Below the pieces are notes generated by a model. The model did no database searches, was not told where the DNA came from, and saw only the letters and a program-made list of their open reading frames with translations. Below are positions 12,749 through 17,938 of a stretch of 64,000 nt of DNA, piece by piece (the stretch's first letter is position 1; each line of letters starts with the position of its first letter). Source of the stretch: an uncultured Bradyrhizobium sp. (GTDB lineage: Bacteria; Pseudomonadota; Alphaproteobacteria; Rhizobiales; Xanthobacteraceae); NCBI RefSeq assembly GCF_936928535.1, contig NZ_CAKZHY010000097.1, positions 9,852-73,851 on the forward strand, written 5' to 3'. Made by a program: the position numbers and the translations under genes.

Positions 12749-14026
12749 TCACGCCATGCTCAGCTCGTGGCGGCCGACCACCATCCAGTGCACTTCGTCC
12801 GGACCGTCGGCGAAGCGGAGGTGGCGGACGTCCTGGTACATTTCGGCGAGCGGGGTCCAGTGCGAGATGCCTGTGGCGCCGTGCATCTGGATCGACTGGT
12901 CGATGATCTTGCAGGCACGCTCGGGCACCATGGCCTTGACCATGGAGACCCAGACGCGGGCCTCCTTGTTGCCGAGCACGTCCATCGCTTTGGCGGCCTT
13001 CAGCACCATCAACCGCATCGCCTCGATCTCGCAGCGGGCTTGCGCGATGATCTGCATGTTGCCGCCGAGATGGGCGATCTTCTTGCCGAAGGCTTCGCGG
13101 GTGAGGCCACGCTGCACCATCAGGTCCAGCGCCTTCTCGGCCTTGCCGATCGTGCGCATGCAGTGATGGATGCGGCCCGGCCCCAAGCGGAGCTGCGAGA
13201 TCTCGAAGCCGCGGCCTTCACCGAGCAGCATGTTCGCCTTCGGCACGCGCACATTGTTGAAGCGCATGTGCATGTGGCCGCGCGGCGCATGGTCCTGGCC
13301 GAACACGTACATGGGCCCGAGCACCTCGACGCCGGGCGTGTCGCGCGGCACCAGGATCTGCGACTGCTGCTTGCTTGGCGCCGCATCCGGATTGGTCTTC
13401 ACCATCACGATGAGAATCTTGCAGCGGGGGTCGCCGAGGCCGGAGATGTAATACTTCTCGCCGTTGATGACCCATTCGTCGCCGACGAGCTTTGCGGTGG
13501 TCGAGATGTTCTTGGCGTCGGAGGAGGCGACGTTCGGCTCGGTCATGACATAGGCCGAGCGGATCTCGCCGTTCATCAGCGGCTTCAGCCACTTCTCCTT
13601 CTGCTCCTTGGTGCCGACGCGCTCCAGCACCTCCATGTTGCCGGTGTCGGGCGCCGAGCAGTTCATGGTCTCGGACGCCAGCGGGCTCTTGCCGAGTTCG
13701 GAGGCGATATAGGCGTAGTCGAGGTTCTTCAGGCCCTGGCCGGTCTCGTCATCGGGCAGGAAGAAATTCCAGAGGCCTTCCTTCTTGGCCTTGTTCTTGG
13801 CGACCTCGAGCACCTCGAGCTGCTTCGGCGTGAAGCTCCAGCGATCCTCCTTGCCTTCGCCGGCCTTGGCGAACTCGATCGACATCGGCTCGACCGTCTC
13901 GCGGATGAACTTCTTGACGTGATCGTAGAGCGGCCGGACCTGGTCCGACATCCTGAGGTCATTGAGCTCATCGCCGGGATTGAGCGTGTAGTTGGTGGTG
14001 CGGGGAATGTAGCTGTGCTTTGTCAT
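12749..14026 (-). CDS. Acyl-CoA dehydrogenase family protein, ACAD10/ACAD11-type
   Basis: Start ATG 14026 with GGAGG upstream; the track start 14314 reads through repeat C1. Motifs [36 protein letters not shown] and [11 protein letters not shown] match my recollection of the ACAD10/11 C-terminal domain. Confidence 0.85.
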   Translation of the reverse strand: [425 protein letters not shown]

Positions 14027-14212
14027 TGTTCCTCCCGGGAGCGCTGAGATCATATTGGCCGGGAGAATAGTCGCAGCGCCACGAAAGTGCGAGCGCGTAT
14101 TTTCTCGCGCAAGCCATGCCATGCCATGGAATTTTCGCGGGGCGTTTGAAATGTTGTTTGAATGGGGGCGCGGACGTGACGTGGATAGAGTACGGACCCG
14201 TGCCCAGGATTC

Positions 14213-14299
14213 CGTCATTGCGAGCGCAGTGAAGCAATCCAGAATCTTACCGCCGCGACAGTCTGGATTGCTTCGTCGCAAGAGCTCCTCGCAATGACG
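14213..14299. repeat. REP/MITE-like nested palindrome, family C copy 1 (CGTCATTGCGAG ... CTCGCAATGACG)
   Basis: Outer inverted repeat CGTCATTGCGAG / CTCGCAATGACG and inner inverted repeat GAAGCAATCCAGA / TCTGGATTGCTTC. About 90% identical to 42657-42743. Confidence 0.8.
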
Positions 14300-14317
14300 A
14301 GGAGAGATCGGCATTCC

Positions 14318-15791: not shown

Positions 15792-16580
15792 ATGCAGTTC
15801 AAACACGTCACGCTCGAATTCGATGGTTCGGTCGCGATCCTCAAGCTCGACCATCAGGAGGTGATGAACGCGGTCTCCGTGGACATGCTGGGTGGCCTCT
15901 CCGATGCGCTCGATGCGATCGAGGAAAAAAGGGACGAGGTGCGCTGCGTCGTGCTGACCGGCGCTGGACGTGCGTTCTGCACGGGGGCGAATCTTCAGGG
16001 CCGCAACAACCAGTCGAAGAAGAGCAAGGCGGGCCTGACGCTGGAAACCGGCTTTCATCCGTTCCTGCGCCGCATCCGCAATCTGCATTGCCCGATCGTA
16101 ACGGCGGTCAACGGCCCCGCCGCCGGCGCCGGCATGAGCTTCGCGCTGCTTGGCGATATGATCTTGTGCGCGCGTTCCTCCTACTTCCTCCAGGCCTTCC
16201 GTCGCATCGGCCTCGTGCCGGATTGCGGCTCGACCTGGCTGTTGCCGCGTCTGATCGGCAAGGCGCGCTCGGTCGAGCTGTCACTGATGGGCGAGCGCCT
16301 GCCGGCCGAGAAGGCGCTGGAATGGGGGCTCGTCAATCGCGTCTATGACGACGGCGTTTTGATGGAGGAGGCGATGAAGCTCGCGCACGATCTCGCCAGC
16401 GGGCCGACGATCGCGCTGTCGCTGATCCGCAAGCTCTATTGGGACAGCCCGGAGAATTCGTTCGAGGAGCAGCTCAATCTCGAATTCCAGTGCCAGCTCC
16501 GTGCCGGCGATACGCAGGATTTTCGCGAAGGTGTCGGCGCATTCCTCGAGAAGCGCCCCGCGCAGTTCAAAGGCAAATGA
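15792..16580 (+). CDS. Enoyl-CoA hydratase/isomerase (crotonase) family protein
   Basis: Oxyanion-hole motifs VVLTGAGRAFCTGANL and AVNGPAAGAGMSFAL. Confidence 0.85.
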   Translation: MQFKHVTLEFDGSVAILKLDHQEVMNAVSVDMLGGLSDALDAIEEKRDEVRCVVLTGAGRAFCTGANLQGRNNQSKKSKAGLTLETGFHPFLRRIRNLHCPIVTAVNGPAAGAGMSFALLGDMILCARSSYFLQAFRRIGLVPDCGSTWLLPRLIGKARSVELSLMGERLPAEKALEWGLVNRVYDDGVLMEEAMKLAHDLASGPTIALSLIRKLYWDSPENSFEEQLNLEFQCQLRAGDTQDFREGVGAFLEKRPAQFKGK

Positions 16581-17563
16581 TCGAGGCGGAGCTCTCCCGC
16601 AGCGTCCGGCGCTGGTGTCCAGGTGCGACCGGCGCGACCTCCGCGGCAAAGCTGTCGGGTGGCGCCAGTCAGGAGACCTGGCGCTTCGATATCGTCCATC
16701 CCGATGGGCCGATCGGTGCGATCCTGCGGCGCTCGCCGAAGGGCTATGGGGCGGCGCCGACGCGTGCAGCGGGGCTCGCGGCCGAAGCGCAGCTGATGCA
16801 GCTCGCTTACGAGGCCGGCGTGCCGTCGCCGCGCGTGATGCATGTGCTGGCGCCGGAGGACGATCTCGGCACCGGCTTCATCATGCAGCGGGTCGAGGGC
16901 GAGACCATCGCCCGCAAGATCCTTCGTGACGATGAATTCGCTGCGGCGCGGCCGCTGCTGGCGCGGCAGATTGGCGGCATCCTTGCTGGCTTGCATCGGC
17001 TCCCGCAGGATAAATTGCCCGAGCTGCGCAGCAGGTCGGCGACGCAGGAGATCTCCGAGTTCGACCGAGACTATCGCAGTCTGAACTGGCCAAAGCCGGT
17101 TTTCGAGCTCGCGCTGCGCTGGCTGCGCGACCACGATCCCGGCCCCTCGACTGAGGTGACGCTGGTGCACGGCGATTTCCGCAACGGCAATCTCATCATC
17201 GGCCCCGACGGCGTGCGCGCCGTGCTCGACTGGGAGCTCGCCCATCTCGGCGATCCCATGGAGGATCTCGGCTGGGTCTGCGTCAACTCCTGGCGTTTCG
17301 GCGAGATCGACAAGCCCGTCGGCGGCTTTGGCTCGCGCGAGGAGCTGTTCGCCGGCTATGAGGCGGCAGGCCGCAAGGTCGATCCGGTACGGGTGAAATT
17401 CTGGGAAGTCATGGGCACGCTACGTTGGGGCATCATGTGCGGCGGGATGATGCAGCGGTTCCGCGAGGGGCCCGATCATTCCATGGAACGCGCCATGATC
17501 GGGCGCCGCGCCTCGGAGACCGAGATCGATCTCTTGCGGCTGCTCGCGCCGCGGGAAGGATAG
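16577..17563 (+). CDS. Phosphotransferase family protein (APH-type kinase; LvaA / ACAD10-11 kinase-domain-like)
   Basis: ATG 16577 overlaps the crotonase stop (ATGA). Brenner motif LVHGDFRNGNLII and metal-binding LDWELAHLGDPMEDLGW. Confidence 0.8.
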   Translation: MIEAELSRSVRRWCPGATGATSAAKLSGGASQETWRFDIVHPDGPIGAILRRSPKGYGAAPTRAAGLAAEAQLMQLAYEAGVPSPRVMHVLAPEDDLGTGFIMQRVEGETIARKILRDDEFAAARPLLARQIGGILAGLHRLPQDKLPELRSRSATQEISEFDRDYRSLNWPKPVFELALRWLRDHDPGPSTEVTLVHGDFRNGNLIIGPDGVRAVLDWELAHLGDPMEDLGWVCVNSWRFGEIDKPVGGFGSREELFAGYEAAGRKVDPVRVKFWEVMGTLRWGIMCGGMMQRFREGPDHSMERAMIGRRASETEIDLLRLLAPREG

Positions 17564-17566
17564 GCC

Positions 17567-17938
17567 ATGCAGGACGAACCGAACCCGATCGAGCTGACCA
17601 AGGCGGTCGCCGATTTCCTCCGCAATGACATCACGCCGTTGATATCAGGCCATCAGGGCTTCAAGCTGCGCGTTGCCATCAACATCCTCGACCTCGTCAC
17701 GCGCCAACTGACGCAGGAGGAGGGCAGCGATGCGAAGGAAGTCGAGCGGTTGCGTGCGCTGCTTGGTGTCGACGGCTCAGTTACTGACCTTAATCGTGCA
17801 CTCGCCGAGCGTATCGCCAAGGGTGAGGTCGATCTGACAACGCCGGGGCTTGCAGAGCATCTGTGGGCGACCACGATGGAGAAGCTCGCCGTCGATCAGC
17901 CGAACTATGCGTCCTACAAGCGGGAACTTGGGAGGTAG
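17567..17938 (+). CDS. Small helical protein coupled to the kinase (DUF6285-like from memory; LvaB-like by size and position)
   Basis: 123 aa, starts 3 nt after the kinase stop and shows good GC3 bias. No enzymatic motifs recognised. Confidence 0.6.
   Translation: MQDEPNPIELTKAVADFLRNDITPLISGHQGFKLRVAINILDLVTRQLTQEEGSDAKEVERLRALLGVDGSVTDLNRALAERIAKGEVDLTTPGLAEHLWATTMEKLAVDQPNYASYKRELGR

Follow-up and report, generated by a model that had tools for sequence, protein, structure and literature searches.

A 64-kb stretch of Bradyrhizobium sequence (the window; GC content approximately 64%) carries a group of acyl-CoA catabolic genes. Among them are the gene of an acyl-CoA dehydrogenase (ACAD)-fold enzyme of the mammalian ACAD10/ACAD11 type (ACAD1) and, on the opposite strand, the genes of an APH-fold kinase (KIN) and of a small DUF6285 protein (Table 1). 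The supporting Pfam and PDB E-values, 1e-32 to 1e-115, are far past chance. The explanation that we favour, and to which we give about an even chance, is that the genes form a composite acyl-CoA catabolic island of two separately inherited modules, and that in this organism KIN-DUF6285 hands its product to ACAD1. Module B, consisting of ECH1, KIN, DUF6285, ACAD2 and LIG1, would provide an LvaA/LvaB-family kinase of two components that acts on acyl-CoA hydroxyl groups. Module A, consisting of ACAD1, a VOC-family protein and ECH2, would contribute the ACAD10/11-type flavoenzyme.

In the proposed pathway a 4-hydroxy or 4-oxo acid, the presumed substrate, would be activated by a ligase, and the oxo acid would be reduced by a short-chain dehydrogenase/reductase (SDR). 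KIN-DUF6285 would phosphorylate the substrate, DUF6285 completing substrate binding. By homology, ACAD1 would then eliminate phosphate from the 4-phosphoacyl-CoA in a redox-neutral FAD cycle to yield a 2-enoyl-CoA for beta-oxidation, and crotonases would carry the product onward.

Assignment of ACAD1

When all PDB sequences were searched with ACAD1, the best matches were mouse ACAD11 (8v3u, E 1.6e-115) and human ACAD11 (7.9e-110), and the best ordinary ACAD scored 1.5e-38. ACAD1 and the ACAD domain of mouse ACAD11 share 50% identity. Mutagenesis of the mouse enzyme demonstrated that R626, H634, R637 and the catalytic D753 are required for turnover of 4-phosphoacyl-CoA (Rashan et al. 2025, PMC12440821). 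All four have equivalents in ACAD1: R626 corresponds to the arginine of LRLGPG, and H634 and R637 to residues of the HCMR motif. The stretch from R626 to HCMR is identical to mouse ACAD11 at the tested positions. The catalytic aspartate (ADGPDEVH) aligns with that of ACAD11; ordinary ACADs, including ACAD2, have xEG. The segment NCxAPDTGNM is also present in ACAD1, including the proline of APDTGNM (P463 in human ACAD11) that was singled out by Paquay et al. 2024 (PMC11342911).

In a neighbour-joining tree of the ACADs from the collected loci plus mouse ACAD11, ACAD1 was found in a clade with mouse ACAD11, apart from the ordinary FadE-type enzymes. The sister clade is a subtype, here called THCMR, that is characterized by the motifs RLxPARLTHCMR and YDGPSEVH and is 31-35% identical to ACAD1. 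By its sequence, ACAD1 is an ACAD10/ACAD11-type enzyme, and it is predicted to eliminate phosphate from 4-phosphoacyl-CoA.

The kinase and its DUF6285 partner

KIN is 92-95% identical to proteins named from Bradyrhizobium. The catalytic loop HGDFRNGN and the metal-binding LDWE are intact, and as judged from these motifs KIN is a catalytically complete APH enzyme. Its best PDB matches were 3dxp (E 4.6e-15), a Ralstonia eutropha APH-fold protein deposited as 'putative acyl-CoA dehydrogenase', and the kinase domain of ACAD11 (1e-10). A neighbour-joining tree of the kinases, cited here for its topology alone, without bootstrap values, separated a DUF-less clade (A) from a DUF6285-associated clade (B). 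Clade A contains the mouse ACAD11 kinase domain, 3dxp, and kinases of Streptomyces, Haematobacter and Sulfitobacter. Clade B falls into subclade B1, with KIN, kinases of Sulfitobacter and Cupriavidus and those of 80 genome loci, and subclade B2, with the Lva-type kinases.

In all clade A kinases the alpha-C glutamate is preceded by an arginine (DRE), and an RQxxxW motif is present. The two arginines correspond to R86 and R176 of ACAD11, which molecular dynamics set against the CoA moiety (Rashan et al., PMC12440821). Both were absent from every bacterial clade B kinase compared: at the positions of DRE and KRQ/ARQ...W in clade A, KIN carries AAE and ATQEIS. The two haloarchaeal kinases retain the second motif in part (ERE.DRW). 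KIN thus differs from ACAD10/11 in having no equivalents of R86 and R176 and in having a separate partner protein, and from 3dxp, a member of the DUF-less clade A, which keeps the RE and RQxxxW arginines.

The partner gave no PDB match when searched as a single sequence. Its AlphaFold model consists of five helices (mean pLDDT 84), and a Foldseek comparison of the model with the PDB detected no fold match (best E 2.9). Arg46 is invariant across subclades B1 and B2. A profile search of the protein database returned named matches from Bradyrhizobium only, and no mention of DUF6285 was found in the literature searched. Its association with kinases that lack the clade A arginines suggests that DUF6285 binds the kinase and supplies the binding determinants missing from clade B. 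Such a role would explain why, as described in PMC6692424, lvaB is essential and LvaB pulls down with LvaA.

DUF6285 in Lva-type operons

An lva-like operon of Stutzerimonas was used as a proxy for the Lva proteins of P. putida KT2440. On a Stutzerimonas stutzeri plasmid a gene for a PrpR-type regulator diverges from the genes of an APH kinase (352 aa), a DUF6285 protein (119 aa), a histidine phosphatase, an ACAD, an SDR, an acyl-CoA synthetase, a DUF485 protein and an acetate symporter. This order matches the published levulinate operon, lvaR / lvaABCDEFG, plus a phosphatase like the extra one of P. citronellolis (PMC6692424). The small gene in the lvaB position encodes a DUF6285 protein (E 1.9e-21) that is 27% identical to the window protein and keeps Arg46. 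The core ACAD-kinase-DUF6285-phosphatase was also found in Azoarcus, Azospirillum and Thermus. Since DUF6285 occupies the lvaB position in the Stutzerimonas operon, LvaB is very probably a DUF6285 protein, and the reading of KIN and the 123-aa open reading frame (ORF) as LvaA plus LvaB appears sound at the family level.

In every Lva-type locus seen (Stutzerimonas, Azospirillum, Azoarcus and Thermus), DUF6285 is followed by a gene of the histidine phosphatase family, and one also lies near the clade A kinase of Pseudochelatococcus (L089 9348-10109; L090 7402-8115; L091 7366-8043; L003 8345-8986; L096 12271-12939). The ACAD of the Stutzerimonas operon (L089 10106-11278) is of the THCMR subtype and shares 34% identity with mouse ACAD11. 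Paquay et al. (PMC11342911) reported 56-62% identity for Q88K54, the P. putida protein that they name LvaC. Either LvaC of KT2440 belongs to the other HCMR subtype, or a paralogue was compared.

Gene neighbourhoods of the kinase

One genome per species was scanned, which gave 80 loci with kinases 95-55% identical to KIN. The window proteins were mapped onto these loci, and the counts below take in the loci with enough flanking sequence. DUF6285 accompanied the kinase in 51/51 Bradyrhizobium-level loci and in 25/26 loci of other genera, and was adjacent to it in 76/77. Three further genes were constant or nearly constant companions of the kinase at the Bradyrhizobium level and practically confined to it: ECH1 (50/50 versus 1/24 in other genera), SDR1 (50/50 versus 1/23) and ECH2 (48/50 versus 0/24). 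ACAD2 was near the kinase in 41/46 Bradyrhizobium-level loci and in 7/23 loci of other genera. The VOC gene was absent wherever ACAD1 was absent, and its antisense signal ('orf147') co-occurred with ACAD1. Insertions of 1.5-6 kb separate ACAD1 from SDR1 in several species. A scan for the motifs R...HCMR and DGPxEVH detected no HCMR-type ACAD within 10 kb of the kinase outside Bradyrhizobium.

At ten loci of Parvibaculaceae (L058-L063, L067, L072, L073, L079) the kinase-DUF6285 pair has no ACAD nearby. It lies between RecG-/Mfd-like helicase genes and a set consisting of a crotonase, a thiolase-like and a 500-aa gene (labels from N-terminal sequence alone). Given these loci, only the kinase-partner pair is universal.

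ACAD1-type operons in other genera

Orthologues of ACAD1, 70-72% identical, were found in Sulfitobacter, Haematobacter, Pseudochelatococcus and Breoghania. Their operon has the order 3-hydroxyacyl-CoA dehydrogenase, enoyl-CoA hydratase (ECH), ACAD1, SDR, SDR, followed by a VOC or a thiolase gene. In Pseudochelatococcus and Breoghania the divergent unit is ECH-APH, and in Streptomyces a clade A kinase lies directly upstream of the ACAD1-type gene. On one Sulfitobacter plasmid the two systems occur together, each in an operon of its own.

ECH2 is orthologous, with 48-52% identity, to the ECH next to the ACAD1 orthologues of the four genera, and the window VOC protein is 39% identical to that of the Sulfitobacter ACAD1-type operon. 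The Sulfitobacter kinase operon contains an ECH that is 47% identical to ECH1 and a ligase, orthologous to LIG1, that is 50% identical to it. Two modules are thus interleaved in the island, since ECH2 and VOC match the ACAD1-type operon, and ECH1 and LIG1 the Sulfitobacter kinase operon. SDR1 is 29-35% identical to the SDRs of both Lva-type and ACAD1-type operons.

A plasmid-borne ACAD10/11-type gene of Sulfitobacter pontiacus (L088 36560-37800) is apparently a pseudogene, with an in-frame stop near the N-terminus and the C-terminus cut beside a transposase. A 'vanG' prediction in PLSDB on a 100-nt piece of it is apparently a false call.

ACAD2, the recurrent neighbour of the kinase-DUF6285 pair

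ACAD2, whose gene begins 1.1 kb downstream of the kinase pair in the window, is presumably the ancestral partner of the kinase. It lies directly downstream of kinase-DUF6285 on Sulfitobacter plasmids and in seven loci of other genera (Burkholderiales, Caulobacterales and others), and directly downstream of the kinase in Nocardia farcinica. In Halomarina, Natrinema and Haloterrigena an ACAD2-type ACAD, a 157-159-aa protein and an APH kinase are encoded together as a trio. The link between the kinase and ACAD2 extends over Alpha- and Betaproteobacteria, Nocardia and these three haloarchaea. The haloarchaeal small proteins gave no Pfam match to DUF6285, and a profile-profile comparison with DUF6285 gave a weak similarity (E 0.016 over 61 N-terminal columns). 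The trios are on plasmids (L092 4343-7233, L094 5001-7822, L095 5001-7830), and the 157-159-aa protein is acidic. Two of them adjoin genes of the hydantoinase/oxoprolinase and acetoacetate-decarboxylase families.

The best PDB matches of ACAD2 were ordinary ACADs. Its catalytic glutamate is normal (RITEGSEEIQ), and the HCMR region contains CFVHQNRIRQAASSLG, with RIRQAASS where ACAD1 has RIHHCMRT and F in place of R626. Since Glu, RIRQAASS and F replace Asp, HCMR and R626, ACAD2 is not a member of the phosphate-eliminating family. The ACAD2 family is extremely conserved: 157 positions were invariant in 15 sequences from Proteobacteria, Actinobacteria and Archaea. The invariant positions include the basic clusters FDxRRExxRTD, NRIRQ and HIYRHHRRYRITEG, which ordinary ACADs do not have.

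We offer a tentative idea, which we rather doubt, that kinase, DUF6285 and ACAD2 may constitute a separate three-gene module, conserved in Proteobacteria, Actinobacteria and haloarchaea alike. In it a kinase like LvaAB would work with a canonical Glu-type ACAD, presumably linked to electron-transfer flavoprotein, and not with the redox-neutral HCMR/Asp type. The basic clusters would bind the phosphorylated acyl-CoA, and the module could constitute a third hydroxyacyl-CoA route, such as an oxidation after which phosphate is lost and a dienoyl-CoA results. As the subunit that binds the substrate, DUF6285 would take the place of the CoA-binding arginines present in the fused ACAD10/11 kinases.

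Relationship between KIN and ACAD1

Several observations favour a hand-off from KIN to ACAD1. KIN is the sole APH kinase and ACAD1 the sole HCMR-type ACAD in the 64 kb. The divergent layout mirrors the arrangement of the ACAD1 operon and ECH-APH in Pseudochelatococcus and Breoghania (Hyphomicrobiales). Finally, KIN's relatives in subclade B2 work together with an ACAD of the HCMR type. Several findings weigh against it. ACAD1 is within 10 kb of the kinase in 24/42 Bradyrhizobium-level loci and in none of 20 loci of other genera, and the 18 of 42 without ACAD1 and VOC keep SDR1-ECH1-KIN-DUF6285-ECH2-ACAD2. The recurrent neighbour of the kinase is ACAD2 and not the HCMR-type enzyme, and in three of the four taxa with ACAD1 orthologues the ACAD1-type operon diverges from a clade A kinase. 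KIN shares only 32-37% identity with the Lva-type kinases and falls in a separate subclade (B1 versus B2), and SDR1 is not clearly orthologous to LvaD.

These same findings could be read to mean that the two modules are functionally independent, which we regard as quite possible, though we incline against it. KIN-DUF6285 would then work with ACAD2, ECH1 and LIG1 on another phosphorylated acyl-CoA, ACAD1 would be served by a DUF-less ACAD11-like kinase elsewhere in the genome, and the proximity would reflect clustering of fatty-acid-type genes and local rearrangement. In different phyla, and in haloarchaea as well, ACAD2 does follow KIN-DUF6285; ACAD1 varies as a neighbour and is surrounded by REP-like repeats; its orthologues elsewhere have clade A kinases; and the Sulfitobacter plasmid keeps the two systems in separate operons. 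However, no second kinase is present in the 64 kb, and no clade A kinase is named from Bradyrhizobium among the best 120 relatives of the Haematobacter kinase, a weak negative as most of these matches are nameless. Moreover, in other genera ACAD2 is by the kinase at only the seven loci of 23, and it lacks every residue known to handle phosphate, so that the fate of the phosphorylated product would be left unexplained by independent modules.

The first-pass annotation, made from the letters of the window and a list of its ORFs, had proposed the opposite, a dedicated split version of LvaABC and ACAD10/11 in which the kinase, its small partner and ACAD1 co-evolved and constitute, together with the SDR and the ligases, a single unit. 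Much of what it described holds. The ORFs, the ACAD1 motifs, HGDFRNGN and LDWE, the ATGA coupling and the 3-nt gap were all confirmed, and the five functional classes are present, with SDR1 and the two ligases recognized by Pfam. Its family assignments were correct: ACAD1 groups with mouse ACAD11 and not with FadE, and the DUF6285-associated clade of KIN also holds the kinase of the lva look-alike. The single unit is nevertheless improbable in our view, as it is already contradicted at the level of co-inheritance by the ACAD1 counts given above. ACAD1 is on the opposite strand, 2.5 kb off, and missing in many close relatives that keep the kinase cluster, which is at odds with a collinear lva-type operon. 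True Lva-type operons use the other kinase subclade, the THCMR subtype and a histidine phosphatase, and ECH2 and VOC tie ACAD1 to another operon type. The conserved ACAD of the kinase is ACAD2, which the annotation did not mention, and orthologues of ACAD1 pair with DUF-less clade A kinases. We consider it very improbable indeed that KIN modifies antibiotics, as an aminoglycoside or macrolide phosphotransferase would, or acts as some other small-molecule kinase outside acyl-CoA metabolism. NCBIfam matches to APH(3'), Mph and thiamine kinase were weak and all far below the cutoffs; 3dxp and the kinase domain of ACAD11 are the closest structural relatives, translation of the gene is coupled to that of a crotonase gene, and in the 80 scanned loci the kinase has a DUF6285 companion and acyl-CoA genes around it.

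Organization of the island

The features of the island are listed in Table 1. The units SDR1-VOC-ACAD1-flavin reductase and ECH1-KIN-DUF6285 diverge from a single 194-bp spacer, a topology that suggests common regulation. No signal beyond shuffle expectation was found in a promoter/terminator scan, and the spacer contained no convincing sigma-70 match. A search for a common operator across the intergenic regions yielded REP/MITE-like repeats only and no plausible operator.

Table 1. Features of the acyl-CoA catabolic island (positions refer to the window)
Feature	Position	Strand	Basis
Flavin-reductase-like protein	12053..12721	-	PF01613, E 2e-21
ACAD1, ACAD10/ACAD11-type ACAD-fold enzyme, 425 aa	12749..14026	-	Mouse ACAD11, E 1.6e-115
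VOC/glyoxalase-family protein, between SDR1 and ACAD1	14318..14698	-	PF00903, E 2.8e-9
SDR1, short-chain dehydrogenase/reductase, divergent from ECH1-KIN-DUF6285	14818..15597	-	PF13561/PF00106
194-bp divergent intergenic region, SDR1 (-) / ECH1 (+)	15598..15791	.	Sequence inspected
ECH1, crotonase-fold enoyl-CoA hydratase/isomerase	15792..16580	+	NF004635, 487 bits, above cutoff
KIN, APH-fold kinase, LvaA family in the broad sense	16577..17563	+	PF01636, E 2e-36
DUF6285 small partner (LvaB-like), 123 aa, predicted all-helical	17567..17938	+	PF19802, E 1.9e-32
ECH2, crotonase	18058..18837	-	PF00378
ACAD2, Glu-type ACAD	19047..20321	+	Synteny with kinase-DUF6285; ordinary ACAD residues
LIG1, AMP-binding acyl-CoA ligase	20463..22043	-	NF004837, 670 bits, above cutoff
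SDR2, second short-chain dehydrogenase/reductase	22307..23179	-	PF13561, E 3.6e-39
ECH3, third crotonase	23284..24093	+	PF00378, E 5.6e-40
LIG2, second AMP-binding acyl-CoA ligase	24210..25754	+	PF00501/PF13193

The stop codon of ECH1 (TGA) and the start codon of KIN (ATG) overlap in the sequence ATGA, and the two genes are translationally coupled. The DUF6285 ORF begins 3 nt past the TAG stop codon of KIN and is preceded by GGAAGGA. The start of ACAD1 was placed at 14026, and not at the beginning of the longer ORF that extends to 14314, because a GGGAGGA ribosome-binding site is located 5 nt before the ATG at 14026. The flavin-reductase-like gene follows ACAD1 after 27 nt on the same strand, and is kept at several Bradyrhizobium loci that do not have ACAD1. 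Two long plus-strand ORFs (14294-14737 and 22118-23356) were rejected as genes: their composition is antisense-like and they have no Pfam match. The true genes beneath them, on the minus strand, encode the VOC/glyoxalase protein and SDR2.

Two families of REP/MITE-like palindromic intergenic repeats bracket the segment that is variably present among Bradyrhizobium. Copies of one family (CCGTCATTGCGAGC...GAAGCAATCCAGA...) lie upstream of ACAD1 (14211-14300) and between DUF6285 and ECH2 (17960-18050), and copies of the other (CCGTAGGGTGGGCAAA...) in the VOC-SDR1 (14730-14815) and ACAD2/LIG1 (20330-20460) spacers. A gene of the nitronate monooxygenase family (FMN) is located at 9000-10265 (minus strand), 2.5 kb past the flavin-reductase-like gene, and a weakly similar gene of this family (27% identity) lies beside the THCMR-type ACAD of a Sulfitobacter island.

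Comparison with known systems

The island resembles the P. putida levulinate operon (LvaA-LvaE; Rand et al. 2017, as described in PMC6692424, PMC12440821 and PMC11342911) in having an APH kinase followed by a partner of about 12-14 kDa, an HCMR/Asp-type ACAD, and an SDR and ligases nearby, and in the predicted 4-phosphoacyl-CoA chemistry. It differs in that KIN belongs to B1 and that the Lva-type ACAD is of the THCMR subtype. Lva-type operons are collinear, usually with a histidine phosphatase and a PrpR-type regulator, and the island has none of these features. With mammalian ACAD10/ACAD11 (8v3u, 8v3v, 2wbi; Rashan 2025, Paquay 2024) it shares, in ACAD1, the 50% identity to the mouse ACAD11 domain and all mutationally validated residues. 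The island kinase, in contrast, is unfused, belongs to another clade and is 27% identical to the N-terminal domain of the mammalian proteins.

A split arrangement, with kinase and ACAD10/11-type ACAD as separate proteins, is shared with Burkholderia pseudomallei, in which the kinase (Q63VL0) and the ACAD (Q63VL1) can replace both ACAD10 domains in vitro (Paquay 2024, PMC11342911). The B. pseudomallei kinase is 51% identical to ACAD10's kinase domain and 38% to that of ACAD11, and is active without a small partner (PMC11342911); it presumably belongs to clade A. Unlike KIN and ACAD1, the clade A kinase adjoins the ACAD in the loci examined (e.g. Streptomyces).

A literature search on Bradyrhizobium found no work on this locus. 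The novelty claimed by the first-pass annotation is justified only in part: a split bacterial kinase plus ACAD10/11-type ACAD is already known, and homologues of lvaABCD were noted by Rand 2017 (cited in PMC6692424) in Alpha-, Beta- and Gammaproteobacteria. Relative to the literature searched, four points are new: the probable identification of LvaB-type partners as DUF6285, the association of DUF6285 with a separate clade of kinases that do not have the clade A arginines, the recurrent coupling of subclade B1 to a Glu-type ACAD across domains, and the juxtaposition, in Bradyrhizobium, of such a kinase with an enzyme of the ACAD10/11 type that belongs to another module.

By what route 4-hydroxy acids are fed into beta-oxidation was an open question until 2024-2025. 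The compounds concerned include lipid-peroxidation products, lactones, levulinate and analogues of gamma-hydroxybutyrate. Soil Alphaproteobacteria carry a close relative (50% identity) of mammalian ACAD11, and the recognition of DUF6285 as the probable LvaB-type partner gives a DUF protein a testable role. For annotation, the case is a warning that the nearest kinase and ACAD should not be paired without a synteny check. The ACAD that most often accompanies the DUF6285-associated kinase clade is a different one, and extremely conserved. Should the ACAD2 module indeed act on phosphorylated acyl-CoAs, the principle of kinase plus ACAD would extend beyond the two families described so far.

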